Below, one piece after another: positions 5,950 to 52,417 of a stretch of DNA of 64,000 nt (the first letter of the stretch is position 1; every line of letters starts with the position of its first letter). Both the position numbers and the translations under genes were made by a program. The DNA is from a virus (taxonomy: Duplodnaviria > Caudoviricetes): the IMG/VR virus record IMGVR_UViG_3300014969_000016, positions 32,001-96,000 of that record; one strand, written 5' to 3'. The notes beneath the pieces are model-generated. The model had not been told where the DNA came from, searched no databases, and saw only the letters and a program-made list of their open reading frames with translations.

Positions 5950-6122
5950 ACACGCCTACCGTACTGGCTATCCCAGTGGGGTTGCTGTTGCTGCTGCTGA
6001 GTCATGTAGGCGTCGTTCTCGTCGCGCTCTTGGCGGCTGGTCGTCACCTTGCCGCCCTGGTGCCGGTGCCCGTAGTCAGCAGGGTTGAACAGTTGCGGGT
6101 GAAGGTGGTCGGTTGCTGCCAT
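5946..6122 (-). CDS. 58-aa protein starting MAATDHLHPQLF (candidate tagged virion cargo)
   Basis: Not in the ORF track. Start and stop overlap both neighbours. First 7 residues are identical to those of 6122..6502. Confidence 0.75.
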   Translation of the reverse strand: MAATDHLHPQLFNPADYGHRHQGGKVTTSRQERDENDAYMTQQQQQQPHWDSQYGRRV

Positions 6123-6502
6123 CAGGGGAACGACGGAAATCTGTTGGTGGTCACGGGCTGCTGAGGTTCCGGGGTGCTGCGCTTGGTGTAGTCCCGGTAC
6201 TGCACCGGGACATAGCTGCGGGGATTGGCGGTGTATGCCGCCATGATGCGATGGTGCCCGGAGACGATCTTCTGCTCGCCGCCTTCGTGGATCCCGAGCG
6301 TCACCGGGTACTCGACACCACGCTTGGCCACGTCGGCAGCCAGACCGTCAGCGGCGTTGTCCTTGCGCTTGGAAGTCCACATCTGGTCGTGTGACTTCCA
6401 CCCGGCCGGGTGGCTGGGATCAACATCGGCCGATCTGTAGTCCTGCAGTAGCTCCCGTGCTGTCATGAACAGCTTGCCCTGGAGGTGATCGGTGGCAGCC
6501 AT
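6122..6502 (-). CDS. ParB/Srx-like N-terminal domain protein
   Basis: LAADVAKRGVEYPVTL...IVSGHHRIMAA; paralogue at 51944..52417. Confidence 0.75.
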   Translation of the reverse strand: MAATDHLQGKLFMTARELLQDYRSADVDPSHPAGWKSHDQMWTSKRKDNAADGLAADVAKRGVEYPVTLGIHEGGEQKIVSGHHRIMAAYTANPRSYVPVQYRDYTKRSTPEPQQPVTTNRFPSFP

Positions 6503-7344
6503 CAGAACAGGGTTCCCTGGTTCGGATCGTGCCTGGACTCCTGGTGGCCAGCGTGGAACTCTTCGGTGCGATCACGTGGGTGCAGTTCGGACAGCAGCGG
6601 TTCGTGGGCACTCTCGGTGATGGCCCCCCACTTCTCCAGGCCCGCCGCCGCACCGATCCGGTTCACATCCTTCTCACCGAAGTCGATGGCCTCGCCCAGG
6701 CTCATGCTCGACCTCAGCAAGTCCCACTTGGGGGTGTAGCCGATGTGCCTGCCGGTCTGCTGGTTCTCAATGGCGTGGACGTTGTCGAACATCGTCTGCT
6801 GAACGTGGGGCAGGATGGCCTGCTCGTCATCCAGCCGTCGAAACTCCGGGGTGCCGTGGACAGCATGGTGGACCAGATCGACGTAGTTGTTGTTGCCACG
6901 TGATTCGATGGTCGGCTCCCGGCCGGTGGGTTCATACTCATGTACGCCAGCCGGGGCGACGGCATGGTCACGCACCGTGGCTCCAGGCCGCAGACGCACC
7001 TCGGCCTCCATGTCCAGCCCCCACTGTGACTTGCCTGTCTTGAACTTGCCCTCTGAGTCCGTGTAATGCGAGCGGATGTTGCCGCCCTTCCACTCGCCCT
7101 CGGTGATGACCTGATCGCGAGACACGGTGGCCCGGTGGACGAAGCGGTCGTCGCCAGATCCACCAAGGCCGGTGTAGTGCGAGACGTTCTCGTCGGTTGA
7201 CCAGTGGATACCGAGCGAACCGCCAGGGTCACCCTTCTGCATGCGGTAGACCGTCATGCTCTCGGGCGGATTCTTGGCCATCTCCTTGAACTGCTCCTTG
7301 CGGAGGTTGCTGGCCCGGTACTCCTCGTCGGACATGCGCTCCAT
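6502..7344 (-). CDS. Putative ADP-ribosyltransferase-fold protein
   Basis: TVYR / GIHWSTD / EAEVRL match the order of the R-S-ExE ART signature; ends QGTLF. Confidence 0.5.
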   Translation of the reverse strand: MERMSDEEYRASNLRKEQFKEMAKNPPESMTVYRMQKGDPGGSLGIHWSTDENVSHYTGLGGSGDDRFVHRATVSRDQVITEGEWKGGNIRSHYTDSEGKFKTGKSQWGLDMEAEVRLRPGATVRDHAVAPAGVHEYEPTGREPTIESRGNNNYVDLVHHAVHGTPEFRRLDDEQAILPHVQQTMFDNVHAIENQQTGRHIGYTPKWDLLRSSMSLGEAIDFGEKDVNRIGAAAGLEKWGAITESAHEPLLSELHPRDRTEEFHAGHQESRHDPNQGTLF

Positions 7345-7562
7345 CAGAACGTCGGCTTTGAGTAGGGCGACTTCATACGCATGTAGCTGCGGTACTGGTT
7401 CTTCTGCGGATTGCGCTGGTAGAACGCCGGGAACTGCTTGCTGGACATGGGCGGGAACGGATCGTTGACCGGGCGTGTGTCATGTTTCGCAGCGGCCAGC
7501 GTGACGTGATGACGCGACGCCTGGCGGCGGGGGCGACTCTCCCCCCGATACTCACTAGCCAC
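7344..7562 (-). CDS. Small basic hypothetical protein
   Basis: GTG start at 7562 overlapping the upstream stop (MASEYRGESRPRRQ...MSSKQF...). Confidence 0.55.
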   Translation of the reverse strand: MASEYRGESRPRRQASRHHVTLAAAKHDTRPVNDPFPPMSSKQFPAFYQRNPQKNQYRSYMRMKSPYSKPTF

Positions 7563-7845
7563 GGAACCCCGGAGCGCCCTTGACGTGATAGCCCCGGCCG
7601 CTCTCGTTCTTCTCCAGCGCCGGTCCCTTGCCGAAGTCACCTCCACCACCAGGGCGGTACGAACCAACCACCCGTCCTGTTGACCACTTGCCGGAACTTT
7701 CCGTGGTGACGCCAGTACCAGGCTCATCGAACAACATGTCTTGGGAGATAAGGCCAGATAGCTGCGTGCTCTTGCCCACCTTCCGCTTGGGGTGGTTGGC
7801 CTTGTCCGGGGCCAACCTGCCATCGTCTCGGTGTCCACTAGCCAT
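7555..7845 (-). CDS. Small Gly-rich protein with NHPKRKV and QDMLF motifs
   Basis: 96 aa, GGAGG RBS. Confidence 0.75.
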   Translation of the reverse strand: MASGHRDDGRLAPDKANHPKRKVGKSTQLSGLISQDMLFDEPGTGVTTESSGKWSTGRVVGSYRPGGGGDFGKGPALEKNESGRGYHVKGAPGFRG

Positions 7846-7860
7846 TGTGATACCTCCGTA

Positions 7861-8151
7861 TCAGCCCTTCCAGGTTCCGCTGCGGCGCTCGTTCTCGCTG
7901 GCGGGTCCGTGGTGCGTGTAGCCCTGGCTGAGGTAGTCGCCGCCCTCGTTGTAGCGACTGACGTACTGGCGCCGGGTAGCGACGCCGCCCACGTCCACGA
8001 CGGAGTTGTCGAACACCTCGCGATGCACCTTGCGGTCAGGGTTGTCAGCCTGGTTCGCCGCCAGCCGCCGACCGGACGACGACATCTTGTACTGGTGGGC
8101 CGGTGTTGACCGTTCCTTCTTGATGGCAGCGACCTGCTCAGCGCGCTTCAC
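7861..8151 (-). CDS. Small protein with DNPDRKVHREVF motif
   Basis: 96 aa, GTGA coupling. Confidence 0.7.
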   Translation of the reverse strand: MKRAEQVAAIKKERSTPAHQYKMSSSGRRLAANQADNPDRKVHREVFDNSVVDVGGVATRRQYVSRYNEGGDYLSQGYTHHGPASENERRSGTWKG

Positions 8152-8303
8152 TTCTTCTTCGCTTCCTTCTTCAGGACGCCGCTGGCCTTCTTGATGGCCT
8201 TGCCCTCGGAGTCACCGGACTTCTCGGCCGACTCACGCACGTGCTCCCACTGACGGGACTTCTTGGCGGTGTTGGCCTTCTTGGTGTGTTCGGATGCGGG
8301 CAT
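8148..8303 (-). CDS. Small basic ChaB-like protein
   Basis: MPASEHTKKANTAKKSRQWEHVRESAEKSGDSEGKAIKKASGVLKK; start moved to the ATG at 8303. Confidence 0.6.
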   Translation of the reverse strand: MPASEHTKKANTAKKSRQWEHVRESAEKSGDSEGKAIKKASGVLKKEAKKK

Positions 8304-8404
8304 CAGATCCTCCCTCGCAGTAGCAAGATGACGAGCAGGATGATCAGGATCAGCAGGATGACGCCCCCGCCGATGTAGAGGCCACCAGCAAGTAGGGGAA
8401 ACAT
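8303..8404 (-). CDS. 33-aa single-TM microprotein
   Basis: MFPLLAGGLYIGGGVILLILIILLVILLLRGRI; TGATG coupling on both sides; not in the ORF track. Confidence 0.7.
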   Translation of the reverse strand: MFPLLAGGLYIGGGVILLILIILLVILLLRGRI

Positions 8405-8622
8405 CAGCCACCTCTCCTTCGGTCACGTTCACGGTCGTAGGCATCGGGGTCTTCGTTCATGGCGATGCCTTCGAAGTTGGGCTTGACCTTGTTCCACTTC
8501 GGGTCGGGTGGCCCGTACTCCGGGTAGCTGGCCATCGAACGGGAGAGGGCGTCGAACTCCGGCCCCCGAAAGCGTTCACGGTGAACCTGACGGTTGGGGT
8601 CGTTCTCTCTACGGTCAGCCAT
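8404..8622 (-). CDS. Small protein with NDPNRQVHRERF motif
   Basis: 72 aa, GAGG RBS. Confidence 0.7.
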   Translation of the reverse strand: MADRRENDPNRQVHRERFRGPEFDALSRSMASYPEYGPPDPKWNKVKPNFEGIAMNEDPDAYDRERDRRRGG

Positions 8623-8632
8623 CGATACCTCT

Positions 8633-8950
8633 CTATGCCACGGTGCTCTGGTGGCGGTTCATGATCTGGCCCACCGGCCCGTAGCTGTTGGTGTAGCGGG
8701 GCTGGTTGTCCTGCGTGAACGCCACCACCGGGTCCGTCATGCGCTGAGGCATCTGGATCGACAGGTTGCCATGCATGCGGGCGGTGGCGTCCTGGGCGCT
8801 CATCCCGGCGTCGCGCATGCGCTCCCAGTTGCCCTGGATGACCGGCCCTGCGTCACGGCTGCTGATACCACCGTCAGTGCTGGGATGGACGATGCCGATG
8901 GAACTGGGCCGACGTGCAGGACTCATGGCGGTGTTGATACCTCTGGCCAT
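8633..8950 (-). CDS. Hypothetical protein
   Basis: 105 aa, translationally coupled. Confidence 0.65.
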   Translation of the reverse strand: MARGINTAMSPARRPSSIGIVHPSTDGGISSRDAGPVIQGNWERMRDAGMSAQDATARMHGNLSIQMPQRMTDPVVAFTQDNQPRYTNSYGPVGQIMNRHQSTVA

Positions 8951-9108
8951 CAGCGGGTGCTTTCTCTCCCACCCTTGGAGCGCTTGGCCTCACGGGTCTT
9001 GGCCGTGTCCTTCACACTCTTCGGAGCAGCATGGCGGGGTGCTTCCTTCTTGCCCTTGCCGAAGCTTCCCTTGTCCTTGCTGTCGGTGTGCTGGGCCTTC
9101 TCGGTCAT
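8950..9108 (-). CDS. 52-aa Lys-rich protein (possible DNA binder)
   Basis: MTEKAQHTDSKDKGSFGKGKKEAP...; ATGA coupling. Confidence 0.6.
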   Translation of the reverse strand: MTEKAQHTDSKDKGSFGKGKKEAPRHAAPKSVKDTAKTREAKRSKGGRESTR

Positions 9109-9296
9109 GTCCAGTCCCCCTTGGTCTGTCGGTTGGCCACGTTCCACTGTGAACGCTGCAGGTTGCCGTTGGCAACGACGGGCCTCTTGTCCGTGACGAT
9201 GCCCGATTGGTTGGTAGCCCGAGATGTCGGGTTGAGAGGTGTCTTCTTGGCCACCCTCTTGGACAAGGGTGCCTGGCGCTGTGGTCCGACAGGCAT
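9105..9296 (-). CDS. 63-aa basic protein with NLQRSQW motif
   Basis: MPVGPQRQAPLSKRV...; coupled to both neighbours. Confidence 0.6.
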   Translation of the reverse strand: MPVGPQRQAPLSKRVAKKTPLNPTSRATNQSGIVTDKRPVVANGNLQRSQWNVANRQTKGDWT

Positions 9297-11419
9297 CACC
9301 GAGCGAACCTTGGGTTCTGTGCGTAGATCGCATCGTTGCGCTTGCTGCGCTGGCGCAACTCCACCGAGGCGGCAGCGCGAGAGGGACGGCGCTTCGTATC
9401 GGGTCGCTCCGTGGCATCCCACGATGCGATGTTGGGGGCCGGTGCTCCACCCCTCGCCGCCGAGATGTGGGCAGCCGCCTCGGATTGCTCCGTGGCCACC
9501 CGTGATGCCGACTGGGCCATGCGCCCACGCAGTTCGATGGAGGCAGCATGCTCGTTGGCATGATCGGCGGGCGTCTTGGTTGGGAACAGCGGGCCTTGGC
9601 CAGCCTTCGGGTCGGCCTTGGCCGGTAGCGCCCGCCAGTTGCTGGCGTAGCGGGTGGCCTCCCCGGTATCGACATCGAACAGCGGAACGTTCTCGCCTGG
9701 CTTGGGCGTCTGGCCAGCAGGAGCATTGGGCCGACCGGCAGCTTGAGCAGCGATGTGCGCCTCGCGCTTCTTCAGGTCGGGATCCTTGTCCATGTCCATG
9801 CGGTAGGAAGTCCATGACCCGCCCTGGACGGCAACGGCCGGAACACCAGCGCCAACGTTGCGCCCAGCGGCCCGTGCCCGGTCGGTGACGATGCCTGCAG
9901 CCCGGTTGTTGACCTCGTTGGACATGGCATGCAACGCCTCTTCCTTGGTGAGCTTGCGCTCACCCTTGGGAGTAGGCATGTACTTGTCACCACTACCGAT
10001 GTTCATGACGTGCTCGTCAGAGCCGAGCAGCTTGGCCACCAAACTTGGTGAGCGAGCACTCTGGCCGACTTCCTTGCCCTCCACATCACGGGGCAAGGCC
10101 AATGACTGGGCCATCGCCCAGGTGTCCTGGGCCGTCGTGCCCTCATGGAGCTTCATCCCCGCATCGATCCTGGCGTTATCCCGTGCCGACTGCTCCGGGA
10201 AGAACTGCTCAGCGGCCACGGACGGACGATGCGGCACGTCGGGCTGGTGACCGGTGTTCAAGATGCCCTGGGTGACGTGCGCCTTGCCGTAGGGATCGGC
10301 TTCGTACTCGGGGCCGAAGATCGTGGGCTGTTCGAAGTACGGGTGATTCTCGGGTATCGATTCGTGGACCCTGCGATTGAACTCGGACACGTCGTTGGCG
10401 TCGGGGGCATCCTCACCCATCGATGCCAGGCCAGCGCCGAGCAGGCTCTGGTGGGTGTAGGTGGGCACCTTGCCGGTTGGCCCTTGATCGGCCTGGGTCT
10501 TCTGGCCCCGGATCATCTCGGTGCCGGTGGCGACCTCGGTGCCGCCCTTGGCGATGCCTCCGAGATCGACGTTGCCCGTCAGGTGGTCCCGGTGACGGGC
10601 GAGCATCGCCACCTGCTTCGGAGTGAAGTCACTGAAGTTGCGATTCTGGCCGGGAGCCATGTCGAGGTCTTCCATCGCCTGACCATGGGACTTGCGAACA
10701 TCAGGATCGGCGTTCTTGGGCAGCTTGGCCATCGTCAAGGACCGATCACCACGCCCGTGCTGGCCGTAGGAGATGGCCGTTGCCGCCGCTCGTTCCGACA
10801 CCGGGTCGTTCTGCGGACTCATCGACGTGGAGCCGACAACGGTCTGGCGTGTATCGGCGCCCGTTACTTCGGCCACCTTGGCCAGTTCGCCGCCATGACT
10901 CTGGTACCAGTCACCACCCGCAGGGATCACCGTGCCCCTGCCCTCCTTGACGTGGGCGACCGAGGCCAGGGCCGATGCGGACAGCGACGACGGGCCGAGA
11001 TCAGCATCGGTCACGCCGATGTTCCCGGACAGGGTGCGCTGCCCAGCCCGTGCGTAGTTGTCAGCCACACGCGCCGCAGCAACGTCCATCGTCACCGGGG
11101 TGGGGCTGTTGGTGAGGAGCGACGCTGCCGTGGTCATCTGCGCCGCACGGCGCTTCTCCTTGCCGATGTTGTCTACGTCGCCGCCCTTGGCCCCCGCAAC
11201 ACGCGCTGTTGCGTTGGCGGCGGCATTCGCCGCCATCGTGTGGGGGTTGGAGGCGATGTTCGTGAAGGCTGCCTCAGCCCGCGCCTTGCCCTCGGGAGAG
11301 AAGTCGGCCATCGTCGGCGGGCGACCGGTCGTCTCTCGGGGATGCAGCGGCGGTTGACCGTTGGCTTCGTCTCGACTCGTTCGGCCCATCAGCCCTTCCT
11401 TCCCCGTGGATCCCGCCAC
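9296..11419 (-). CDS. Large virion-associated protein with a dispersed HhH-glycosylase-like (WY..SPQ..KV..DxW..VQ..W) motif pattern
   Basis: 707 aa. DWYQSH, SMSPQN, GKVPTY, AQDTWA, AVQGGSW occur in the order seen in a widespread phage family. Disordered ends. Confidence 0.5.
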   Translation of the reverse strand: MAGSTGKEGLMGRTSRDEANGQPPLHPRETTGRPPTMADFSPEGKARAEAAFTNIASNPHTMAANAAANATARVAGAKGGDVDNIGKEKRRAAQMTTAASLLTNSPTPVTMDVAAARVADNYARAGQRTLSGNIGVTDADLGPSSLSASALASVAHVKEGRGTVIPAGGDWYQSHGGELAKVAEVTGADTRQTVVGSTSMSPQNDPVSERAAATAISYGQHGRGDRSLTMAKLPKNADPDVRKSHGQAMEDLDMAPGQNRNFSDFTPKQVAMLARHRDHLTGNVDLGGIAKGGTEVATGTEMIRGQKTQADQGPTGKVPTYTHQSLLGAGLASMGEDAPDANDVSEFNRRVHESIPENHPYFEQPTIFGPEYEADPYGKAHVTQGILNTGHQPDVPHRPSVAAEQFFPEQSARDNARIDAGMKLHEGTTAQDTWAMAQSLALPRDVEGKEVGQSARSPSLVAKLLGSDEHVMNIGSGDKYMPTPKGERKLTKEEALHAMSNEVNNRAAGIVTDRARAAGRNVGAGVPAVAVQGGSWTSYRMDMDKDPDLKKREAHIAAQAAGRPNAPAGQTPKPGENVPLFDVDTGEATRYASNWRALPAKADPKAGQGPLFPTKTPADHANEHAASIELRGRMAQSASRVATEQSEAAAHISAARGGAPAPNIASWDATERPDTKRRPSRAAASVELRQRSKRNDAIYAQNPRFAR

Positions 11420-11703
11420 CCCTTGGAGATGGCCTTGGCCCGCCTGGCCTCCAACACGTCGGGCCGGAACGGCTGGAGTGCTGGCGGCATCGCGAACTTG
11501 TTGAGATACTTGCGGTGTACCTCTTTCAACACGTTCGGATCGGCGTTGATCATCTCGTAGCCGCTGTTGACCTCGGCAGACGGCTTGACCAGGTACTTCT
11601 GGATGTTGGAGACAGGGCGTCCCGCCGTGGCAGGGCCAAGTGCTCCAGAAGCTGCTCTAGCGCCTTTCGACCCGGCCGCGCCCACTGAGATGGGCTTGGC
11701 CAT
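11389..11703 (-). CDS. Small basic hypothetical protein
   Basis: 104 aa, in operon. Confidence 0.65.
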   Translation of the reverse strand: MAKPISVGAAGSKGARAASGALGPATAGRPVSNIQKYLVKPSAEVNSGYEMINADPNVLKEVHRKYLNKFAMPPALQPFRPDVLEARRAKAISKGWRDPRGRKG

Positions 11704-11709
11704 GGTGGG

Positions 11710-12072
11710 TCAGTCGCTGACTTGGGCGGGGTTGAGGCGACGGATGCGTGCCTCGCTCCCCACTTCGCGTTCGAAGCTGGCCGGTCCCTGACCGATGGAA
11801 GCGCCGATCACGAAGTCGTTCAGCATGGTGGGGGCTTCGATCCAGGTGGCGCTGCCGACATGGGCACGCTCACGCATCGTCTCGGCCTCGCCCTTCCAGA
11901 CGGTGTACGGACGCTGACGAGCGTCGCCACCGGGATCGCCGTAGGCGCCCTGGCCGAAGTCGTTGGGAACGTCGGTGTCCGTGGCAACGCCCTCTTCGAA
12001 GCGGAGTGGACCACGTCGAGCGTTGTTCACTGCCATGACGTGCTCATAGCCGCTCGCAGGTGCGTAGCTCAT
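11710..12072 (-). CDS. Conserved head-module protein downstream of terminase
   Basis: RRGPLRFEEGVATDTDVPNDF...TMRERAHVGSATWIEAP; GGAGG RBS before ATG 12072. Confidence 0.75.
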   Translation of the reverse strand: MSYAPASGYEHVMAVNNARRGPLRFEEGVATDTDVPNDFGQGAYGDPGGDARQRPYTVWKGEAETMRERAHVGSATWIEAPTMLNDFVIGASIGQGPASFEREVGSEARIRRLNPAQVSD

Positions 12073-12199
12073 TGATTGCCTCCTTAGGCCGGTATCACCC
12101 GAGCATAGACCAGGCAAACCTCTGTATCGAGGTTTCCTGGAGCGCTCTGAGGAGTCCCCGCCAAAGTGTAAAGCCGAATCTTGTGACGTTCGTCACAAG

Positions 12200-13822
12200 T
12201 CATCCCCGGCGAGTGAAGAACGGCGAGTCCATCTGCTCTACGACGGGGACGGCATCGTCCATCGTGCAGGCCGCAGCCAGGGCCAGGCTGTCCACGTAGT
12301 CCTCATGAGCCTCACGCTCGTCGGGGGCTTCTACCAGGAGGTATTGGCCCTTCATCACCTTCTCCACGTCCACCATCTGCTGACGGAAGCGTCGCCACAC
12401 CCTGGTGCGCCGTGCCTTGGAGTGGCCGGGGTAGATCAGCATCTGGCGTTGTATCAACTGGATGAGGTGCTTCCAGCGGTCGGCCTGGTTCTTGGCATCG
12501 GACGGGTACGGCCGAACTTCGGCCCGCGATCCGATCAGTCGGGCCATGCGGTCGGCAACGGCGCTGCCCATGCCCTGGGCATCGACGCCAACGTGGGAGA
12601 TCCAGTACGGCTCAAGGAAGTCGAGAATTTCGAAGTACTGCTCCTCCCAGGCTGTGTTGTGGATCTCCAGCCAGTTGAGGATGCGGTGCTCCCGGTACCC
12701 GGCCGGGTCGGGGAAGTCCCAGTCCACCCAACACACGGTGACGACGGTGGAGTCCTTCACACGGGCCGGGTCGATGCCCACCACGCAGGGAGAACGGTGC
12801 CATGCCTTGACTAAGCCCATCGACTTGTCAGCAAGGGCGTCCAGGTCGTCCTCGGTGATGAGCATGCCTCGCTCAAGCATCCACTTGAGCCGGTATGACA
12901 TCTGGAACTCTTCGGAGTCCTCCCCGAGACGGAGCTTCTCCTTGTCGATGAACTTCTTGTAGAACGGGTTGTACCGGGAGACGACTCGGTCGTCGTACTC
13001 AAAGTGGTTGGCCCGCTTACCCCGCTGACGGCGCTTGTTGAGGTTGATGGCCTTGTAGAAGTCACCCTTGTGATACCCAGGGGTGCCGATCTTGACCATC
13101 GTGCCGCCCGTGGCCGCGAGCATGGGGTGGATCGACTTGCGGATGACCTGCTCGTCGGCGTCCTGGCACTCGTCCACCACGATGATGTGATACGTGGAGC
13201 CTTCGATCTTGGCCCGAGGGTTGGCGGTCTGGCGTCTGCAGTAGGAGCCGTTGGAGAGTCGCACGACCTTGGACTTGCCATCGACCTTCTCATCGATCTC
13301 CGGGTCGGACAGGATCGATACCGCCCTATCGGAGGTCAGTCTCGACACGATGCGTGAGAACACCAGGTCAGACTGGTCATCGACCGGTGCGAACAGCCCG
13401 ATCCACACGCCGTCCTTGAACCGCTCCAGCAGCGGGTAGGTCTTGGCCAGGATGGGCAGCAGGATCATGCAACCCGACAGGGTGACGGCCACGACCTCGC
13501 TCTTGCCTGACTGGCGGGCCATCAGCCCGGTGATCTCTTCGGCATCCCCCAGAATCAGACTTTCGATCACCCGGTAAGACATCGTGCGCTGGTACGGCCG
13601 CAGTTCGTGGCCCCACAGTTCCTCGCAGAAGATGATGGTGCGCCGGATCAACTGATCCAGGAAGTTGGCCATCTCCGGGTCGAGGTCATCGATGGTGTCC
13701 GAGTCCTGATCTTCCAGGAGGGTGGCTTCCTCAGCCGCCTCTTCGGCAGCGAGTTCGGCCTCTTCCTCATCGGTGAGGTCGTAGCCCAGGTCCGTGATCA
13801 GATCAGAGATACCTACGACCAT
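12200..13822 (-). CDS. terL: Terminase large subunit
   Basis: Walker A ARQSGKS, Walker B IIVVDECQ, coupling motif IGTP, nuclease VGIDPA and HEDYVDSLAL. Start moved downstream of the 13833 terminator (exact start uncertain). Confidence 0.95.
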   Translation of the reverse strand: MVVGISDLITDLGYDLTDEEEAELAAEEAAEEATLLEDQDSDTIDDLDPEMANFLDQLIRRTIIFCEELWGHELRPYQRTMSYRVIESLILGDAEEITGLMARQSGKSEVVAVTLSGCMILLPILAKTYPLLERFKDGVWIGLFAPVDDQSDLVFSRIVSRLTSDRAVSILSDPEIDEKVDGKSKVVRLSNGSYCRRQTANPRAKIEGSTYHIIVVDECQDADEQVIRKSIHPMLAATGGTMVKIGTPGYHKGDFYKAINLNKRRQRGKRANHFEYDDRVVSRYNPFYKKFIDKEKLRLGEDSEEFQMSYRLKWMLERGMLITEDDLDALADKSMGLVKAWHRSPCVVGIDPARVKDSTVVTVCWVDWDFPDPAGYREHRILNWLEIHNTAWEEQYFEILDFLEPYWISHVGVDAQGMGSAVADRMARLIGSRAEVRPYPSDAKNQADRWKHLIQLIQRQMLIYPGHSKARRTRVWRRFRQQMVDVEKVMKGQYLLVEAPDEREAHEDYVDSLALAAACTMDDAVPVVEQMDSPFFTRRG

Positions 13823-13828
13823 ACACGG

Positions 13829-13862
13829 GTAAACCAAAGGCCACCCGAAGGTGGCCTTTGGT
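13829..13862 (-). terminator. Rho-independent terminator separating middle genes from terL
   Basis: ACCAAAGGCCACC-TTCG-GGTGGCCTTTGGT, 13-bp stem with UUCG loop, followed by TT. Confidence 0.75.
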
Positions 13863-13920
13863 CCCACTTACCGAAACAGGATCACTCCAAGCTTCGCTGC
13901 TGATCAGTGTAGCAGATGAC

Positions 13921-41214: not shown

Positions 41215-41459
41215 CAGCGGTGTTCCAGGAAGTGCGTGCTGTGACGGCTGTGCTGGGTGACGTGCTTGCCCGCCTCGCGATACCGGGGGCGAGGATCCGG
41301 CCCAGCGGTGGGGAGACACACGGCAGCGTGCATGCTGCCCTTCATCACGTGCCCACCCTTCTGAGCAGGATCACAAACGGCGCCGCCGCGGACCACGTTG
41401 AGGGGCATGGGCGGCTGACGGTTGGGATCGTTCGCACGGTCGGGTGGACCCTTCGGCAT
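41214..41459 (-). CDS. Small protein with NDPNRQ motif
   Basis: 81 aa, isolated on the minus strand. Confidence 0.4.
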   Translation of the reverse strand: MPKGPPDRANDPNRQPPMPLNVVRGGAVCDPAQKGGHVMKGSMHAAVCLPTAGPDPRPRYREAGKHVTQHSRHSTHFLEHR

Positions 41460-42717: not shown

Positions 42718-43008
42718 CTAGTACAGCGTTCCCTGGCGGGGGTCAGGTGTGGGCGTTGTCGGCCGTGGCCGTGGTCCTGGACCCTTGCGCGACTGGTCAG
42801 TCCAGTTGTGCTCCGTCCCCTTCGGGCCGAACTGGTTCCAGTTGACGTGATCCATCTCATGTGGCTCACTGACGCCCAGCGTCAACTGCCTGCTCCCATA
42901 CACGGGTAACGCCCCTGGCGGGTGGGTCATCACCGTGTTCGGTAGACGCTCCGAGGCGTGCTTGGCCCGCATCCTGTCCAGTCGCTTACCCATAGCTGAG
43001 TCCTTCAA
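42718..43008 (-). CDS. Small protein with HVNWNQF and terminal QGTLY
   Basis: 96 aa (start may be 42993). Confidence 0.6.
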   Translation of the reverse strand: MKDSAMGKRLDRMRAKHASERLPNTVMTHPPGALPVYGSRQLTLGVSEPHEMDHVNWNQFGPKGTEHNWTDQSRKGPGPRPRPTTPTPDPRQGTLY

Positions 43009-43243
43009 AGGGGTCTTCGGGCTGGTGCTGACCAGTCTCGTTGAGCTTCATCATGCTGTGAACCATGTTCATCGTGGCGTCGCTGGGGTCGTAGATCCCG
43101 GCGTTCTGTGCGTGGTGCCGCAGGACGTGCGGGTGCATGTTCTTCACGTCGTCTGACTTGATGCCCCGAGCCTGCAGGTGCCCGACCAGCTTCTGCGCCT
43201 TGACCTGGCGGGCCATGTCCTCGTAGGGATTGTTGTCGGTCAC
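42986..43243 (-). CDS. Hypothetical protein
   Basis: 85 aa, GTGA coupled. Confidence 0.65.
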   Translation of the reverse strand: MTDNNPYEDMARQVKAQKLVGHLQARGIKSDDVKNMHPHVLRHHAQNAGIYDPSDATMNMVHSMMKLNETGQHQPEDPFEGLSYG

Positions 43244-44658: not shown

Positions 44659-44661
44659 GTG

Positions 44662-45684
44662 TCAACGCCCAGGGCCACGCCCACCGATGGTGCTGCGGAC
44701 CTTCACCTTCGGTGGCTGCATCATGGTCTGCGAGTAGAACGACGACGAACGCCCACCAGGTTCCAAGGCGGGCATGGCTTGAGCCTCGCCGCCAGAAGAG
44801 ACTGGTGACGGCCCACGGTTGACGGGGACGCCTGTTCCAAGCTCTCCCTCTCCACTGTCTCCGCTGGTACCCATGTAGAAGCTCGACCTTCTTCCTGGCC
44901 CGATCTCGGGCTGAATGACTTCGGCGTCTTCGATACCACCGTATGACGTAGAAAACTTCGCTCGCGAGGTCGGAGTGCTCGACGGCGCAGACGGCGCAGT
45001 CGGTTCGGTTGGCTCAGGGTTGCCGTCCACCGAACGGTATCCCTCCACGAATCCAGCAGCACGGGCGACGTTGCGGGTGGCCAACCCCTTGCCGAGAGGA
45101 TGCGCCCACTTGGACGGCCCACGGGCTGCATCGAACTTGCCGAGGGTGGTGACCGAGGATGGGTTGAACGCCCCCTGCTGTGTTACTTGATCGTTCTGCT
45201 CCCACCAGCCCTTGCCGGTGCCCATGAACCCGGTAGCGCCGCCGCCACCCTTGCGCTGGCCCCCACGACGGGCAGCGACACGGTTGGCCTGGTACTGCTT
45301 GACCACCGGGTCGTCGGCCGAGAACAGGTTCATCTGGCTGGGGTCGTTGACCGACTTCGGCACGTTGGAGTTGCCGGTACCGGCGTTGACGATCTTGGTC
45401 TTGGGCGTGGGAGCGAAGTCGCCCGTGCCACGGACTGCGCTGCTCATCTCCCGGCTGCTCAGGTACTTGACCAGCTTCTGTCCACCTGGTTCGGCCAGGC
45501 GTGAGGCAACACGCTGACCCACGGCCCTGCTGGCCAGACGTTGTCCAGCCTCGCCTGCGGTGAAGTTGGCCACGCGGCGCCCGAGCGCCCCGGTGACTCC
45601 CTTGGTTACCCCGTACTCGACCGATTCCTTGGCGATACGAGGGCCGAAGGCTTCGAAAGCCGCTCCGAGAAGTCTGCCGAGCAT
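44662..45684 (-). CDS. Gly/Ala-rich disordered protein (candidate internal virion protein)
   Basis: 340 aa; QMNLF motif. Confidence 0.7.
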   Translation of the reverse strand: MLGRLLGAAFEAFGPRIAKESVEYGVTKGVTGALGRRVANFTAGEAGQRLASRAVGQRVASRLAEPGGQKLVKYLSSREMSSAVRGTGDFAPTPKTKIVNAGTGNSNVPKSVNDPSQMNLFSADDPVVKQYQANRVAARRGGQRKGGGGATGFMGTGKGWWEQNDQVTQQGAFNPSSVTTLGKFDAARGPSKWAHPLGKGLATRNVARAAGFVEGYRSVDGNPEPTEPTAPSAPSSTPTSRAKFSTSYGGIEDAEVIQPEIGPGRRSSFYMGTSGDSGEGELGTGVPVNRGPSPVSSGGEAQAMPALEPGGRSSSFYSQTMMQPPKVKVRSTIGGRGPGR

Positions 45685-46307
45685 TACTGCCTCCGGAATC
45701 CCCGGCCAGCTTCGTACTCGGCACGGTTCTGTTGAGCGAATGTTCCTGGTCCCACGGTGTGTGGTGCTGACTCACCGATGAAGTTGGAGTTGGCGGGTTC
45801 GGCGTAGAAGTGCGGGTTGCGCTTCTGCGGGAGCGCTCCCGGCCCGCCCACGATCTTGGTCTTGGGCTTGTCGCCACCAGGCGACAGGATGTTGCCGATG
45901 ATCGGAATCTTGCGGATGATCCCGGCGAATGGCGTATGCGGGATGATGAGAGGCGCCAGCGCTCCGACCGCCAGACCAGCAAGTGTTCCAACACCGGGGA
46001 CGATGGAGCCTGCCTCTGCACCAGCGAGCGCCCCTGCACCAGCCTCAGCAGCAGCGGTGGCTCCGACACGGGCTGCCGACAGTCCAGCGACCCGTGCCGC
46101 CGTCATCCCGACAGCGTTGCGAACCGTGGTTCCACCAGCCGCCCGAGCCACGGTGGCTCCGAGGTCAGCGCCCCAGCCCGCCTCCCAGGCTCCCTTGGCG
46201 AACGGAGCCATGCGGCTGCCGACCTTGTACGCGCCGTACGCAGCAGGGGCGTACTGGGCCGCATCACCGAGTAGGGAGCCATAGTCGTCACCGCTGGTAT
46301 CAGACAT
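45684..46307 (-). CDS. Glycine-zipper protein (candidate ejection/pilot protein)
   Basis: GAGALAGAEAGSIVPGVGTLAGLAVGAL; GGAGG RBS. Confidence 0.7.
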   Translation of the reverse strand: MSDTSGDDYGSLLGDAAQYAPAAYGAYKVGSRMAPFAKGAWEAGWGADLGATVARAAGGTTVRNAVGMTAARVAGLSAARVGATAAAEAGAGALAGAEAGSIVPGVGTLAGLAVGALAPLIIPHTPFAGIIRKIPIIGNILSPGGDKPKTKIVGGPGALPQKRNPHFYAEPANSNFIGESAPHTVGPGTFAQQNRAEYEAGRGFRRQ

Positions 46308-46319
46308 GGCATACCTCCC

Positions 46320-46763
46320 TTAGGGCCGCGGATCCAGAGTATCAACAACGTCCGTCCACGGCCGGAACTGCTTGTCATCGGCACGCCAGCCAGGGGGGTG
46401 GACCGGCGCGCCGACCTTCAAAGTCAACACGCCCAGCGCTTGCACCGCATGGATCGTTTCGTCGTCGGAGTCCAGGTAGACGCCTATTTCCCAACCATTG
46501 GCGAGAAACTCACGAACTTGATCCGCTTTCCAGGACGGATATGTCATCGGGCTGTTCCAACACAGCACCCCTGACCAGGCATGGAGGTTCTCTCTGGACA
46601 GCCACCAGCGGGCGATCTCGTCGTTGGCTCTCGACAGGGCGAAAGTTCGGTATTGGGCACGGATACCGTCGTATAGCGGCTTCGCCCACTTCGTCGGCGC
46701 CGAGCGCTTCAGGTCTTCTTCGGCCGAGAGGGTTCCCTCGACAGCGATCAGCGCTGCGTTCAC
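46320..46763 (-). CDS. Degenerate HAD-like (PNKP phosphatase-type) protein
   Basis: LIAVEGTL (motif I lacking Asp), ALSR, K, VYLDSD; GTGA coupled. Confidence 0.55.
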   Translation of the reverse strand: MNAALIAVEGTLSAEEDLKRSAPTKWAKPLYDGIRAQYRTFALSRANDEIARWWLSRENLHAWSGVLCWNSPMTYPSWKADQVREFLANGWEIGVYLDSDDETIHAVQALGVLTLKVGAPVHPPGWRADDKQFRPWTDVVDTLDPRP

Positions 46764-49700
46764 AACGGGGCGTTCGTCATCGGCACGTAGGACCAACCGG
46801 TGCCCTGGTTGGCCCACACGTTGCCGTACCGGTCATACGTGGGGTTGCCGGTGAGGTCGCCACGCAGCAGGGCCACTTCGGTGCCGCCGAAGGTGTTGGC
46901 CTCACCAATCCCTGAGCGGACGCTGACCGCCCGGAACAGCCCCTTGGCCAACTGAGCGCCATTGGCCGCGCCCACCTGCAGGTCGGCCGTGGAGTTGAAC
47001 ATGGCCAGACTCGACGGGTTGGGGTTGATCTTGGTACTACCCACCTGGCTCCACAGCGTCTGCGGGTCATAGAGCCAGAAGCGGATCTCGTCCTGAAGTG
47101 TGGTGATATCAAAGGTGAAGCTGACGCCAATCGCCACGGCTTGGCCAGGAGCGAAGTTGAGGGTGTAGTCGGTCAGCAGACCGGTGGTGGCGTTGTTGGT
47201 GCCGTCTCGCGAGGTCAACAGCGACATCTGGCCGTTGATCATCTGCCAGAGGTAGGAGCGCTGACCGGCTGCGCCCCACTTGCCGACCAACGTCTGCGTG
47301 CCGGTCGTCCAGCTATCCAGGGCCACCACGGCCATGATGGTGAAGGCGTACTGGTAATCCAGGTACGGAGAGTCAGCAGTGCGGGCGTAGGTGCCCGCCG
47401 TGCCGTCCAGGCGCAGAGACAGGTTCGACGGTGCCGGTGGTGCGACATCGGTGGCTTCTGTTCCAAGGGCTGCCCACTCTTCGGGCGTGTAGTTGGGCTT
47501 CCACACCTGGTTGGTCGTATCCCAGGACAGGGGGATGTTGCCCGAGACGCCGAAGTCGTACCAGAGGCCGTCCCGCAGGTTGAGACGCATCACGTGGTCA
47601 TACAGCGGTATCCGCAAACCGGCCGTCGCCGTCGCCGGAGCGGTGTGACCTGCTTCTTCGACGGTGCCCGCCAGTGTGGGATCCACGTTGATCGTTGTGT
47701 CAACACACCACGGCCCAGGGTAGGAGACTGGGTCGGTGGTCGGATCCAACCAGGTGTCGCCGTAGCCGATGCCAGAGATCGGCCGGATGCGCGAGAGCAA
47801 GTTGCGCATCTTCCAGCCTTCGTCGTTGGATGCGCTGAGCGCTGGTACCTGGGTTTGCCCAGGCGGGATGTCCTGGAGGTTCCAATGGGCGTAGCCGTAG
47901 CTGATCAACTGCACCTTGAGGTCGGTGGCTGACGGCTCGTAGTGGATGGAGTTGGCGGCAGTGAGCGTCCAGGCACGACCACGGGGGTCGGTGTAGCTGG
48001 TGCCGGTACCGGGATACTCAGAGGCATCAAACTTCCACAGCAACTGACTGGCCACCGGTTGCAAGATCTTCTGACCTGCTGTCTGGTTGACGGTGACGGT
48101 CTGCGTGGTGCGGGCCGGGAAGGTGGTGACGGTGTCGTTGGGGATCAGCGAGTCATCGACATCTAGCACTGGCCCTTGGATGATCGAGTTCCACGACGTA
48201 CGTGGATCGACCTGACAGATGACGTTGCTAGCAGTTTGCGTCACCGTCACGGTGCCACCAGTAGTAGCAGTGAAGCTGGTCGCCCCTGCCGTGGCGTTGG
48301 ACTCGTTGATGTCGGCGCCAACGGTGCCCGCAAACCCGCTGCGGACGATGAGTCGGTACAGGTTGCCTGGATAGGGATAGATGGTCGGTGCCATCGTGTT
48401 GGTGATGATTGAAGTGAGGCCAGCACGTGTAACCGGAGCCACGATGTTCGTCCAACCGCTCGTCGGCTCGGTCGCAGCGTCGGGTGCGTACTCGGCGCTG
48501 AGCACCGTACTGCCCGACCCGTTGTCCACGTCGAGGCGGAACCTCAGCCAGACCGGCACGCCGTCAGTGAAGGCATTCCCCATCAGGGCGGTGTAGCTGA
48601 ACTGCTGAGCGAGGGGACCACCGACCGTCCCGTTGAACAACCACTCCAAGGAGTTAAGAGAGTTGTTGAACCGAATACCGTAGGAGGTCGTTCCGGAGTT
48701 CCACTTGTCGAAGATGTAGCGGTAGTTGCCGGTGAAGGCCCAGGTAGTGGGGGCTATCCGACAGACGATCTCTATGTCACCAGTGATCTGCAGCCCCGCC
48801 GAGTTGGCGATCCCGAGTGTGTTACCAGTGGCATTGGGAAACGCGAAGGCCACTGGCTGACGTTGAGTGACAACAACCGTGCCACCTGTCGTCGCCGGGA
48901 ACGAAGCAGCACCGATGGCGGTGATGTTGGACTCGTTGAAGTCGAACACAGTCGGCCCAGCGATGCCGTTGCGAATGATGGCTCTAGCTAATCTCCATCG
49001 ACTGTTACGAGCCGGATCATCGGCACCGAGCCAGATGTTCTGTGTGTTATGACTGATGACCCGTCCCGGCGTACTAGTGAGCGTGCCGGTCAGCGCCGTC
49101 CACGTTGTCGGTTCGACTGGTGTGTTGGTCAGGTTGTACTCAATAGTCGATACCCAGGCACCGGATCCGTTGTCAGCATTCAACGTCGCCTTTAGCCAAA
49201 CAAGTTGGTTGTTCGGGAAGATACCACCCGCATAGTTGACGGTCGATGTCATCGTCAACCCAGCGCCGTAGTAAACGATCCACTGCATCTGACGGAAGCT
49301 GGAGCGACGAAGAATGAAGCTCTGATTGCGCCAGACGATGGCATCAAGAGAAGATGCTGCATCCCAGTCAGGATGAGCAACCCGAACAACGATTTCCATT
49401 GTGTTAGCGTTCGTCGTCACACCTGTGCCAAGAACGGACAATGTGTTACCGGGAACGTTGGGGAACACGGCCCGGAGCGTGGAGGCGTCGATTCCGTTGC
49501 GGACGATCACTCGGGCAATCCGACCGGTGAAGGGTTCAATCGACCCGGCGCTGCGGGCACCGACCTCCACCGCGACGCCAGTAGTCGAGTCGAGCATGGC
49601 GCCAGCGGTGCCCGTGCCTGAGTTAAGAGCGGTCCACGATGTCGGCTCGGTCGCTTGATCAGCCGCCCAGTAGTAGGAGATGAGGCCAGTTGTCGCTACC

Positions 49701-51343
49701 CGCGTCACCTTCACCCACACCATCGTCCCGTTGGCCACAGGGATAGCTGTGCTGTTGATTCCTGCTGCTGGAAGGAAGGGGTTGAGGGCGAACACCCGTG
49801 CCGACGTAGCGACAAGGCGCCAACCCCGAGGCGAGCCGTCCTTGACGACGATGTTGTTGTTGCCTGTCCCCGTTCCCACGACACAACGAGTGACGATCTC
49901 CAGGTCGGCGGGGATGACCACTGATGTCACCGGGGTCACGTTCAGGTAGTTGCCAACGATGCCGGGGAACTGCATCGTCGCCCCGGCCACCGCTACACCA
50001 GTCGGATCAAGACCAGTACGTAGTTCGGCAGAGTAGATGCGACCCTGCCACCGGTTGTTCTGCGCCGTTGACCATGCACCGATGGTCAACGGAAGACTGA
50101 GATCGATGTTGTAGGGAAGAGCACCCGCTTGAACAACTTCGGGACCGACCGCAGTCCAGGTCGCTCCATTGTTGAACGAGACGTAGGCACGCCCTGCTGC
50201 CTGGTTGGCGCCGTTGTCCATGTTGAGATACATGGCGATGGTGACTTCAGCACCAGGTACGATTCCAGCAGCGGTCACCTGGCCTGTGTTGGCGATAGTC
50301 CCCGGCCTGAAGTTAAAACCATCACTGGTCGCGTGGTACCAGAGGCCACCATTGAAACCCATCCAACGGAACCCATACGTACCAGACCCCTGCATCTGAG
50401 CTATGCCGTACTCGGACTGAGTAACGAACCCGCTGCTGATCCTCACCTTGGCGGTCATCACCGTTCTGTTCGGCAGTGGCCCAGGGTCTGGCGTTGTGAT
50501 GGTGCCGATGGTTGCGTCGAGGTAGCTCAACTCCCCGGTCGGCGGGGTCGATACCGGTGTATCAAGCGTTGACCAGTCGAAATCTCCTCGTAGCGCCGAC
50601 ACCTGAAACAGCCGGGGCATCCATCCGGCAGGGAGATACCACGGGACCGATGCCGCTTGTGATACCGGTGGGATGCCCATCTGCAGGCCACCCTGGTCGG
50701 CCTGGGTGGCGTAGGTGATGTTCTGAAGGTCGGAGTACTTCAGGTAGACGAAGAACGGCAGGTGGACGGCGGTCTGGCCACGCTCCACGGCACGGGCGAT
50801 CTCGCGGTACATCCACGACATGAAGGGCTGAGCGTTGTAATCGTCGGGCAGCGAACGATTATCAAAGCTCAGCCCCTCATGGCCGTCAACGAACAGTACC
50901 CAGTCGTTCTCCTGGTAGTGGAACACCTTGGCAGCAGCTTCGAACTGCTCCTTGCGCCACAGCGCCGCCTCGGACTTGCTGTAGAAGAAGTTGCGCCCGC
51001 TGACGGCGTGCTCAGAGGCCGGGAAGCTCTCGGCCCAGTTGATGACCCAGTAGCGCTGCTCACCCGTGTTGATGTCCATGATGAACAGGTCATCCACGAA
51101 GAAGTCGAGCCAGCGCACCGACTTGCCCACGTCGTACTCCAGGTCACCGAACTGCGCGCCCACGATGCCGTGGATGACCGGTTCGGCCGTGACGGCCAGT
51201 GGTGACACACCTGGGTTCATGTCCCCGGCCAGCGGCGTGACCGACACGACCTCGGTCTGTGCCGCTAACTGCTGGGGATACTCAGGTACCAGCGTTTGGC
51301 CAAGTATCAGCGCTTCAGCTTCAGTTGCGGACACGACGGCCAC
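46760..51343 (-). CDS. Giant protein: GT-A glycosyltransferase-like domain split by nested LamG/ConA-like repeats
   Basis: DWVLFVDGHE, PRLF and LISYGY are separated by 4 related beta-sandwich repeats, with a fifth at the C-terminus. Start about 51334-51343 (GTG). Confidence 0.75.
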   Translation of the reverse strand: MAVVSATEAEALILGQTLVPEYPQQLAAQTEVVSVTPLAGDMNPGVSPLAVTAEPVIHGIVGAQFGDLEYDVGKSVRWLDFFVDDLFIMDINTGEQRYWVINWAESFPASEHAVSGRNFFYSKSEAALWRKEQFEAAAKVFHYQENDWVLFVDGHEGLSFDNRSLPDDYNAQPFMSWMYREIARAVERGQTAVHLPFFVYLKYSDLQNITYATQADQGGLQMGIPPVSQAASVPWYLPAGWMPRLFQVSALRGDFDWSTLDTPVSTPPTGELSYLDATIGTITTPDPGPLPNRTVMTAKVRISSGFVTQSEYGIAQMQGSGTYGFRWMGFNGGLWYHATSDGFNFRPGTIANTGQVTAAGIVPGAEVTIAMYLNMDNGANQAAGRAYVSFNNGATWTAVGPEVVQAGALPYNIDLSLPLTIGAWSTAQNNRWQGRIYSAELRTGLDPTGVAVAGATMQFPGIVGNYLNVTPVTSVVIPADLEIVTRCVVGTGTGNNNIVVKDGSPRGWRLVATSARVFALNPFLPAAGINSTAIPVANGTMVWVKVTRVATTGLISYYWAADQATEPTSWTALNSGTGTAGAMLDSTTGVAVEVGARSAGSIEPFTGRIARVIVRNGIDASTLRAVFPNVPGNTLSVLGTGVTTNANTMEIVVRVAHPDWDAASSLDAIVWRNQSFILRRSSFRQMQWIVYYGAGLTMTSTVNYAGGIFPNNQLVWLKATLNADNGSGAWVSTIEYNLTNTPVEPTTWTALTGTLTSTPGRVISHNTQNIWLGADDPARNSRWRLARAIIRNGIAGPTVFDFNESNITAIGAASFPATTGGTVVVTQRQPVAFAFPNATGNTLGIANSAGLQITGDIEIVCRIAPTTWAFTGNYRYIFDKWNSGTTSYGIRFNNSLNSLEWLFNGTVGGPLAQQFSYTALMGNAFTDGVPVWLRFRLDVDNGSGSTVLSAEYAPDAATEPTSGWTNIVAPVTRAGLTSIITNTMAPTIYPYPGNLYRLIVRSGFAGTVGADINESNATAGATSFTATTGGTVTVTQTASNVICQVDPRTSWNSIIQGPVLDVDDSLIPNDTVTTFPARTTQTVTVNQTAGQKILQPVASQLLWKFDASEYPGTGTSYTDPRGRAWTLTAANSIHYEPSATDLKVQLISYGYAHWNLQDIPPGQTQVPALSASNDEGWKMRNLLSRIRPISGIGYGDTWLDPTTDPVSYPGPWCVDTTINVDPTLAGTVEEAGHTAPATATAGLRIPLYDHVMRLNLRDGLWYDFGVSGNIPLSWDTTNQVWKPNYTPEEWAALGTEATDVAPPAPSNLSLRLDGTAGTYARTADSPYLDYQYAFTIMAVVALDSWTTGTQTLVGKWGAAGQRSYLWQMINGQMSLLTSRDGTNNATTGLLTDYTLNFAPGQAVAIGVSFTFDITTLQDEIRFWLYDPQTLWSQVGSTKINPNPSSLAMFNSTADLQVGAANGAQLAKGLFRAVSVRSGIGEANTFGGTEVALLRGDLTGNPTYDRYGNVWANQGTGWSYVPMTNAPL

Positions 51344-51944
51344 GCTTGCGGTGTTCCAGCGCCTTGTTGATGTCGTAGCCGCCCTGCTTGCGGCGGATCT
51401 CCACCTGGACGTAGCTCTGGAAGTAAGGGCACATGTGGCAGAGGTAGACCCGCAGGTTGTTGGGCACAACGTGGACCCGGCCGTCGATCTTGTAGCTGGC
51501 CGCACCGATGCGCTTCTCGTCGGTCATGAAGTCCCGGCAGCCCGAGGACAGGTCGGGGTTGCCGTGGGCGTTGTAACACTTCGCCGCCCCCTCGCGGAAC
51601 TCGTCGCTCTCTTCGAACTGGCGCTGGGTCTGCTCGTTCAACTCGGCCTTGATCTTGGTGACCACGTCCATGGTGTCCCAGGTCTTCTGGTCCACCTGCC
51701 AGACGTTGATCACCTGGCCGTTGACGAAGAGTTGCTCCTGCAGGTGGTGCTGGTGCTGCTCAACGAAGTGTTCCAAGACCGGGTCGTAGGCCGGAACCAT
51801 GATCGGGTTGCCGTGCTCGTCCTTGTAGACGTACTCCTCACCCGACTCCCACTCCAGGCGGGCGACGGTCATCGGGGTCTTGGCGGGCGGGTCGGGGATG
51901 CGTTGGATGATTGCGCAGGGAGCGCAGGCGACGATGCGTGGCAT
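51321..51944 (-). CDS. Cys-rich conserved protein
   Basis: CAPC...KCYNAH...C...YLCHMCPY. Confidence 0.75.
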   Translation of the reverse strand: MPRIVACAPCAIIQRIPDPPAKTPMTVARLEWESGEEYVYKDEHGNPIMVPAYDPVLEHFVEQHQHHLQEQLFVNGQVINVWQVDQKTWDTMDVVTKIKAELNEQTQRQFEESDEFREGAAKCYNAHGNPDLSSGCRDFMTDEKRIGAASYKIDGRVHVVPNNLRVYLCHMCPYFQSYVQVEIRRKQGGYDINKALEHRKRGRRVRN

Positions 51945-52417
51945 TACTCGTTGTCCAGGATGTAGAGGCCCGCATCATCCACGGTGTTGTGATGTATCAC
52001 CGGGATATAGCGGTTTGGATCTGTGTCCAAGCTAATGGCTACCCGGTGATGACCTTCAGCGATCTGGCCCTTCCTGGTCCCGCTGGAGTCAGGCCTGCCG
52101 AACTGATGCGAGAGGTGGACCGGCTGCTGCACGCCCTCGGCGGCGACGGAGCGGTACAACTTGCCGCCGCCCTCCTTCTTGGACTCGGTCAGCTTGCGGT
52201 CCATCACATCGGCGTGACTCTCCAGGCCGGTGGCGACGCCGCCTCGGGCTGGACGCTTGGGCATGCGATCCCACTCCGACGCCTGGTGAGACTGCATGAT
52301 CTCGTTGCCCGTCATGAACATCGGCAACTGCTGCCACTGCTCGCCCAGGTGCGGAGCGTTCAGTTCTGCTTCGGCACGACTCGGCTTCTTGAAGTTCTCG
52401 GGTTGGGATAGGCCCAT
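51944..52417 (-). CDS. ParB/Srx-like domain protein (paralogue of 6122..6502)
   Basis: QLPMFMT...LYRSVAAEGVQQPVHL...IAEGHHRVA...YIPV. Confidence 0.75.
   Translation of the reverse strand: MGLSQPENFKKPSRAEAELNAPHLGEQWQQLPMFMTGNEIMQSHQASEWDRMPKRPARGGVATGLESHADVMDRKLTESKKEGGGKLYRSVAAEGVQQPVHLSHQFGRPDSSGTRKGQIAEGHHRVAISLDTDPNRYIPVIHHNTVDDAGLYILDNE

Follow-up and report, generated by a model that had tools for sequence, protein, structure and literature searches.

Motif carriers between the terminase and portal genes and elsewhere in the window

The stretch of DNA analysed here (the window; 64,000 nucleotides) covers bases 32001-96000 of the 115.7-kb virus record IMGVR_UViG_3300014969_000016, whose completeness is estimated at 98%. 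Its G+C content is 63%, and nearly all of its genes lie on the minus strand. The initial annotation had listed nine short peptides of the type Q-x-x-[L/M]-F in its proteins and had likened them to the peptide that binds the bacterial sliding clamp (the beta clamp, DnaN). All nine were found in the open reading frames (ORFs) named there, every one on the minus strand, as are all carrier ORFs and motifs of the window described below. In one clade of uncultured phages related to the BRock-like Streptomyces myoviruses, Q-x-x-[L/M]-F constitutes a genuine short linear motif: it is enriched, it is convergent on unrelated protein families, and the tails that hold it are disordered and conserved in orthologues. 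According to Pfam, the window encodes a capsid protein (1960-3303), an SPP1-type portal protein (4291-5949) and the large terminase (terL, 12200-13867), and a family-A DNA polymerase (PolA), a DnaB-like helicase, a primase, RecA and an SNF2 helicase are encoded outside it. The closest cultured phages are the BRock-like Streptomyces myoviruses, with a portal identity of 56%, and megablast of the window against the cultured-phage collection returned no nucleotide-level relatives. Genes of the whole 115.7-kb phage were called crudely from the G+C content of third codon positions (GC3), giving 158 genes and 35.8k residues; some called starts are too long, and 'N-terminal' motif positions are therefore approximate. 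Most motif carriers had no match in Pfam or PHROGs.

ORF 6502-7344 encodes a 280-aa protein in which an N-terminal ADP-ribosyltransferase (ART)-like domain (approximately residues 28-144) is followed by another folded portion and then by a floppy tail. It had no Pfam match, no match among PDB sequences and no Foldseek match in the PDB. Alignment with 18 homologues revealed invariant Arg34, His47-Trp48, Thr50 and Glu113-x-Glu115. Comparison of residues 28-144 by VIA-align returned TreX (Z 7.7), TreTu (6.2) and Scabin (5.9), nearly all of the top rows being ART toxins, and the other rows included heat-labile enterotoxin (LT), pertussis toxin S1, Arr and ParT. Given the invariant catalytic columns and the ART toxins atop the structural matches, the protein is probably an ADP-ribosyltransferase of the R-S-E type, an assignment that we make with modest confidence from Z scores below 8 and the motif columns. 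Scabin, one of these top structural matches, is DNA-targeting. The AlphaFold2 (AF2) model has a mean predicted local distance difference test (pLDDT) score of 82, and the last 24 residues (257-280) score below 50; the terminal QGTLF (6505-6519) is predicted to be a disordered C-terminal docking peptide. Tails of the type Q..LF, ..LF or Q..F.[LF] end 17 of the 19 homologues, with spellings such as DPNQGTLF, DPRQGTLF, GQGSLL, ..ERLF, ..ESLF and N-Q-x-Q-F-[E/D/K]-G-[F/M]. The same protein has an internal QQTMF (6787-6801), in which Q182 is invariant and whose flanks are also conserved. Residues 182-193 are modelled as a helix followed by a strand (pLDDT 75-82), and because QQTMF lies within this confidently folded segment, it is probably structural rather than a tag.

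A 126-aa ParB-like protein (ORF 6122-6502) and its 157-aa paralogue (ORF 51944-52417) bear the motif close to the N-terminus. QGKLF of the former (6467-6481) and QLPMF of the latter (52316-52330) belong to the same cluster and occupy the same aligned column. The ParB-like match came from PHROGs (E 9e-4, residues 48-94), with a conserved GHHR column and no Pfam match. In 10 of 11 distinct relatives, Q-x-x-[L/M]-F-M immediately precedes the ParB-like core, in the corresponding N-terminal position, and the usual lead-in to it is M-A-A-[T/S]-D-H (M-A-A-T-D-H-L). This lead-in recurs in the 58-aa ORF 5946-6122, where it is followed by HPQLF (residues 8-12; 6087-6101), which has no Gln at -5. Apart from this, the ORF (cluster 18) resembles nothing but the tail of the phrog_3170-like family C, aligning to the QGQLF-starting tail segment of 309-aa proteins in loci L004 and L077; by its sequence, it is a mini-protein of the tag and the tail of the phrog_3170-like family alone. 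HPQLF was absent from the earlier list, and so was a second terminal copy, QCDLF (residues 9-13; 32427-32441), near the N-terminus of an 85-aa orphan (ORF 32208-32465). The latter lies outside the late cassettes and had no homologues in the fetched related loci.

The 707-aa product of ORF 9296-11419 had no match in Pfam, phmmer found no match among PDB sequences, and Foldseek of its model found no fold match in the PDB. Among its relatives, the best score against DUF7178 was 25.1 bits (L021; E 1.9e-5, over part of the model), which is below the gathering threshold of 27 bits; we therefore call the family DUF7178-like. In the AF2 model, a conserved, mostly helical core is followed by a variable, basic tail of low confidence. 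QGPLF (residues 608-612; 9584-9598) lies in this disordered tail, inside a stretch (residues 566-615) with pLDDT below 50. Approximately 95 residues follow QGPLF in the window member, and the tails of relatives end in the motif. By comparison, QPTIF (10316-10330) belongs to the conserved core, in a block common to L026 and L060 that the model folds into a beta-hairpin with strands at 363-366 and 369-372, and it is probably structural.

The remaining carriers are small or of low complexity. A proline-rich 91/96-aa protein (ORF 42718-43008) ends in QGTLY (42721-42735). Its orthologue in a sister phage (P0175, 68% identical) ends in DPNQGAMF, the pattern being kept with changed letters, and a shorter relative (P0176) is without the tail. 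The initial annotation had pointed out that two unrelated proteins end in DP[N/R]QGTL[F/Y], and indeed the BLASTP likeness between them is confined to the tail. QDMLF (7729-7743) occurs in a 96-aa protein (ORF 7555-7845) whose L008 and L009 relatives match only residues 57-95; the QDMLF segment is unconserved, and its standing as a tag is uncertain. QMNLF (45322-45336) occurs in a 340-aa low-complexity protein (ORF 44662-45684). At the corresponding position of the G001 orthologue of that protein (40% identity) the motif is missing, and QMNLF is probably not a conserved tag. Thus, the nine listed instances only partly form one set of tags: the terminal copies are conserved, but three or four of the nine are probably no tags, QQTMF and QPTIF looking structural and QMNLF and QDMLF being unconserved. 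Further structural or unconserved copies are QRALF in a DpdA-like protein and two in tail proteins conserved in G001 and G004.

Enrichment, conservation and genomic context of the motif

In the whole phage, Q..[LM]F was observed 11 times, compared with 4.05 +/- 1.96 expected from within-protein shuffles of the 158 genes (P ~0.0005), and QG.L[FY] was observed 5 times with 0.5 expected. Twenty control patterns, with other first residues, shifted spacing or the motif reversed, were all at expectation. As the motif had been picked after seeing the window sequence, replication was sought in other sequences. A portal search of IMG/VR gave 79 related loci (portal identity 60-90%) with 797 GC3-filtered ORFs, and these contained 62 copies of Q..[LM]F, whereas 26.3 +/- 4.9 were expected; 8 copies were located within 25 residues of the N-terminus and 18 near the C-terminus. 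Frames ending in Q..[LM][FY]-stop numbered 14 on the portal strand versus 1 on the antisense strand. Furthermore, 9 of the 12 ORFs that end in Leu-Phe have Gln at -5.

The DUF7178-like family was sampled more widely. A search of 1.84 billion representative proteins with a profile built from 13 members identified 236 relatives, and the best 150 of them (pairwise identity <50%) were analysed. Among these 150, 53 end in Q..[LMF]F, 6 in the hexapeptide form and 19 in ..LF without Gln, and in several further representatives the motif stops a few residues short of the C-terminus. Altogether, the 150 contain 75 motifs, compared with 4.7 expected, and 43 of them are at the exact C-terminus; Gln is found at -5 in 44 of the 59 representatives that end in [LMF]F. 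The family consensus is [I/L]-[P/K]-G-Q-[G/E]-x-L-F-COOH, with mostly Gly at the second motif position, and tails without the pentapeptide end in Q-M-S-F-G-F, Q-L-D-L-G-F or Q-L-G-L-G-L. Two-part tails are frequent in the family: an [S/Q]-Q-F or H-F element precedes the terminal Q-x-x-L-F by 6-12 residues. No relatives of the DUF7178-like protein were found in cultured phages or in GTDB genomes, and the family hence has no prophage context. One contig of 45% G+C (L123) encodes a WhiB-like protein (892-1209) and a DUF7178-like protein ending in NQGTLF (5808-7154), a low-GC member of an otherwise high-GC family.

Across the related phages, the motif takes the extended form [I/L/F]-[P/K]-G-Q-x-x-L-F-COOH, with a hexapeptide variant Q-x-x-[L/F]-x-[L/F]. 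Families A, B, C and C32 and the ART-like family are mutually unrelated (hhalign probability <=15%), and the ParB-like family, family D (~100 aa) and the 91-aa family are further carriers; at least five unrelated families carry the tag at a terminus. In L076 the motif is present at both the N- and the C-terminal ends. Conservation of Q and LF in orthologues, on which the initial annotation had staked its proposal, was borne out for the terminal motif of the 280-aa, 91/96-aa, ParB-like and DUF7178-like families. The terminal tags are conserved while the flanking linker varies, which is not so for QMNLF and QDMLF, and the motif is unchanged among phages whose portals are 53-90% identical. The penta- and hexapeptide forms swap between orthologues (e.g., ...QLGLGL and ...QLDLGF). 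A private partner would be expected to make the tails of one genome vary together; no such co-variation was seen among these loci, and L082 has both forms together in one phage.

The tagged genes are located in variable cassettes, between the terL and portal genes and near a DpdA-like gene. The terL-portal stretch (window 5946-12200; loci L004-L082) is hypervariable, and phages with 85-90% identical portals have few genes in common there; the cultured BRock-like phages have a 2.4-kb stretch at this place, with none of the tagged proteins, and the cassette was not found in any cultured phage. In most loci the tagged genes adjoin the head module, directly upstream of the portal gene, in late operons. 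This linkage fails for window 42718-52417 and for L126 and L127, in which three consecutive tagged genes (ParB-like, family C and DUF7178-like) adjoin a DpdA-like gene. The fetched flanks of L126/L127 (~9 kb upstream and ~9 kb downstream of the tagged genes) contain no relative of terminase, portal or capsid genes, and the flanks of L123 contain, within reach, no relative of this phage's head genes.

Candidate partners of the terminal peptides

Beta clamps accept, as a second form of their binding motif, the Pol IV-type hexapeptide (QLxLxL, as in Pol IV and Hda). The consensus of the bacterial beta-clamp-binding peptide is QL[SD]LF (PMC12867686), and the actinobacterial client Mycobacterium smegmatis DinB1 uses QESLF (PMC9346131). 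QESLF is also present in L013 and L017. The terminal peptides of the phage proteins are spelled as the pentapeptide or the hexapeptide, and in the tails of both AF2 models they lie in a flexible, exposed segment, which QQTMF and QPTIF, being in folded parts, do not. No clamp was found in the phage with the profiles TIGR00663, PF00712, PF02768 and PF02916, and a 383-aa orphan of the replication module, checked separately, is not clamp-like. As the phage is without a recognisable clamp, host DnaN is the likeliest partner, and judging from the sequences, we give about even chances to the proposal that the terminal peptides dock on it; relatives of the phage infect Streptomyces. That the motif is unchanged over 53-90% portal identity and kept in L123 and in L126/L127 fits a conserved host receptor better than a rapidly evolving structural protein of the phage. 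The peptides would insert into the hydrophobic cleft of the DnaN ring, and either DNA-directed enzymes would be tethered to clamp-loaded DNA or host clamp clients would be outcompeted. The battery of host-clamp binders proposed by the initial annotation is thus the best-supported reading, in view of the conservation, the two motif spellings and the lack of a phage clamp, but it must shed the three or four copies that are probably not tags, and the 'replication hijack or block' proposed with it is only one among several possible uses of clamp docking.

Docking on DnaN would have both precedents and new features. Like bacterial DnaN clients, the phage proteins have the Gln, Leu/Met and Phe positions, alternate between pentapeptide and hexapeptide, place the motif at N- or C-termini, disordered in the modelled tails, and use the QESLF spelling. 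Unlike those clients, which are polymerases or repair enzymes, the carriers belong to the accessory proteins that phages encode in late cassettes; the second position is mostly Gly, the exact C-terminus is strongly preferred and upstream elements are conserved. Phage Mu MuC binds the Escherichia coli clamp via one N-terminal and one C-terminal motif (PMC12867686), a layout that resembles the two-ended one of L076. The MuC/Mor late transcription activators likewise come without a phage clamp and have near-consensus motifs at the N- and C-termini (QHDLF and QPDLF) with family-wide conservation (PMC12867686). MuC is, however, one family of DNA-binding transcription factors, whereas at least five unrelated families without a recognisable transcription-factor domain are concerned here, in a phage that replicates with its own family-A polymerase. 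In phage T4, the clients of the gp45 clamp include gp43, gp33, gp55 and ligase (PMC7892883, PMC6212786). There too, unrelated phage proteins are gathered on a DNA ring by one hydrophobic terminal peptide, but T4 encodes its own clamp and uses its own peptide spelling, while the present phage is clamp-less and uses the bacterial spelling. Three features are new here: so many unrelated proteins carry the tag, a clamp-less phage with a family-A polymerase uses the bacterial spelling, and a large family has the tail as its hallmark.

Several observations weigh against docking on DnaN. Most tagged genes are in late, structural-type operons by the portal gene, a position that fits a packaging signal better than a role in replication. 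The preference for the exact C-terminus (43 of 75 motifs) is not needed for clamp binding and is typical of cargo-loading peptides. The conserved extra context, namely the [S/Q]-Q-F or H-F element and the M-A-A-T-D-H-L lead-in, is unexplained by known clamp motifs, the second position is mostly Gly where the consensus has Leu, and the family-A replisome of the phage has no obvious need of a clamp. The main alternative is a virion cargo-loading tag: while the head assembles, the peptide would dock proteins on the portal, the scaffold or the inner capsid surface, and they would be packaged and later enter the host along with the DNA. Any resemblance to the clamp motif would in that case be fortuitous, or would be put to a second use once injection has taken place. 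Either the stretch from terL (12200-13867) to the portal gene (4291-5949) or another late operon holds the tagged genes. As in encapsulin cargo, the folded domain of their products is followed by a basic, flexible linker that ends, exactly at the C-terminus, in a peptide of 8-10 residues. ART-like and ParB-like domains also recall virion-delivered 'polyvalent' or MuF-linked effectors, and such domains typify phage proteins that are packaged and injected. As with the capsid-targeting sequences of T4 and the cargo peptides of encapsulins, a short terminal peptide preceded by a flexible linker is common to unrelated proteins encoded near head genes; the sequence is a different one, the T4 tag is N-terminal and cleaved, and the cassette described here is not always by head genes. 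A private packaging signal, however, would have no reason to match both clamp-motif forms and to interconvert between them. Tags occur at either protein end, the L126/L127 cassette adjoins no terL, portal or capsid relative, and the tag is kept in the 45% G+C phage (L123), with no head-gene relative in the reachable flanks. Furthermore, none of the tagged proteins occurs in the cultured BRock-like phages, even though their portals are related (56% identity), and no prohead protease was noticed. A role in cargo loading is rather unlikely in our estimate.

Clamp docking and capsid loading could both be true. In such a virion-delivered effector set, the peptide would load the capsid and then dock on the host clamp, bringing the ART, the ParB-like proteins and others to replication forks of the host or the phage from the first minute of infection, a combination that we consider unlikely; in a weaker form of this proposal, the peptide may be the first cargo-loading peptide described for a tailed phage. 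Approximately half of the phage proteins have no family match, and the peptides might accordingly dock on another hub, be it a different host protein or a phage protein that escaped recognition, for example a clamp-like or scaffold-like one of high divergence. The conserved context outside the five-residue core suggests a longer interface, but the four clamp profiles were negative and the orphan of the replication module is not clamp-like. In addition, sub-clades show no concerted change of the motif, and one genome has both forms side by side; a private receptor that co-evolves with the peptide is thereby less likely than one that is conserved and tolerant, and we regard another hub as distinctly unlikely. 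It might finally be supposed that the copies have no shared function and reflect chance, paralogy and conserved residues internal to folds. Chance would yield about four copies per genome, the ParB-like pair is paralogous, and QQTMF, QPTIF, QRALF, the two tail-protein copies, QMNLF and the copy in the G002 tape-measure homologue are structural or unconserved. This explanation holds for single internal copies, but it is refuted for the terminal ones by the 75 motifs versus 4.7 expected in the DUF7178-like family with 43 at the exact C-terminus, by Gln at -5 in 9 of 12 LF-ending proteins and by the at least five unrelated families; for the motif as a whole it is very improbable.

If the peptides do bind DnaN, the host clamp would serve an entire clade of clamp-less soil phages as the landing pad of an exchangeable enzyme set, and a clamp motif would be the most conserved feature of a phage protein family that spans 236 sequence clusters. 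The precedent of Mu MuC would then extend beyond a single family of transcription factors to a modular 'address tag' that is passed among unrelated proteins, and the tails would provide natural high-affinity peptides for the cleft of the actinobacterial clamp, which is the griselimycin site. If the peptides serve cargo loading instead, they would be a new packaging signal, useful in phage engineering. Either way, proteins without any annotation gain a testable role.

Neighbouring genes and minor observations

Apart from the tagged proteins, small paralogous proteins starting with M-x-x-G...[D/E]-R-A-N-[H/D]-P-N-R-x-V-G recur in the tagged cassettes, often in tandem (window 7555-7845 and 41214-41459; L009 8997-9203; L078 7908-8435; L126 6914-7933). 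A tape-measure homologue of G002 (G002:C1:74676-77288, corresponding to L096 14676-17288) has an N-terminal QQQLF (residues 11-15), which was considered as a tag and rejected: its orthologues are without the motif, and the copy is probably due to chance.

The 472-aa DpdA-like protein (window 43240-44658, minus strand) matches PHROG 887 (queuine tRNA-ribosyltransferase/DpdA-like; E 1e-19) along its C-terminal third, which is Cys-rich, and has orthologues in G001 and L127. A full 7-deazaguanine pathway beside this gene is unsupported, because QueC is absent from the phage, and any 7-deazaguanine precursor would therefore need to be supplied by the host. Further along, between the tail-fibre-like giants and the second tagged cassette, a likely lysis cassette (window 54085-55569, minus strand) encodes a pair of small membrane proteins together with a 350-aa protein whose C-terminus is peptidoglycan-binding-like.

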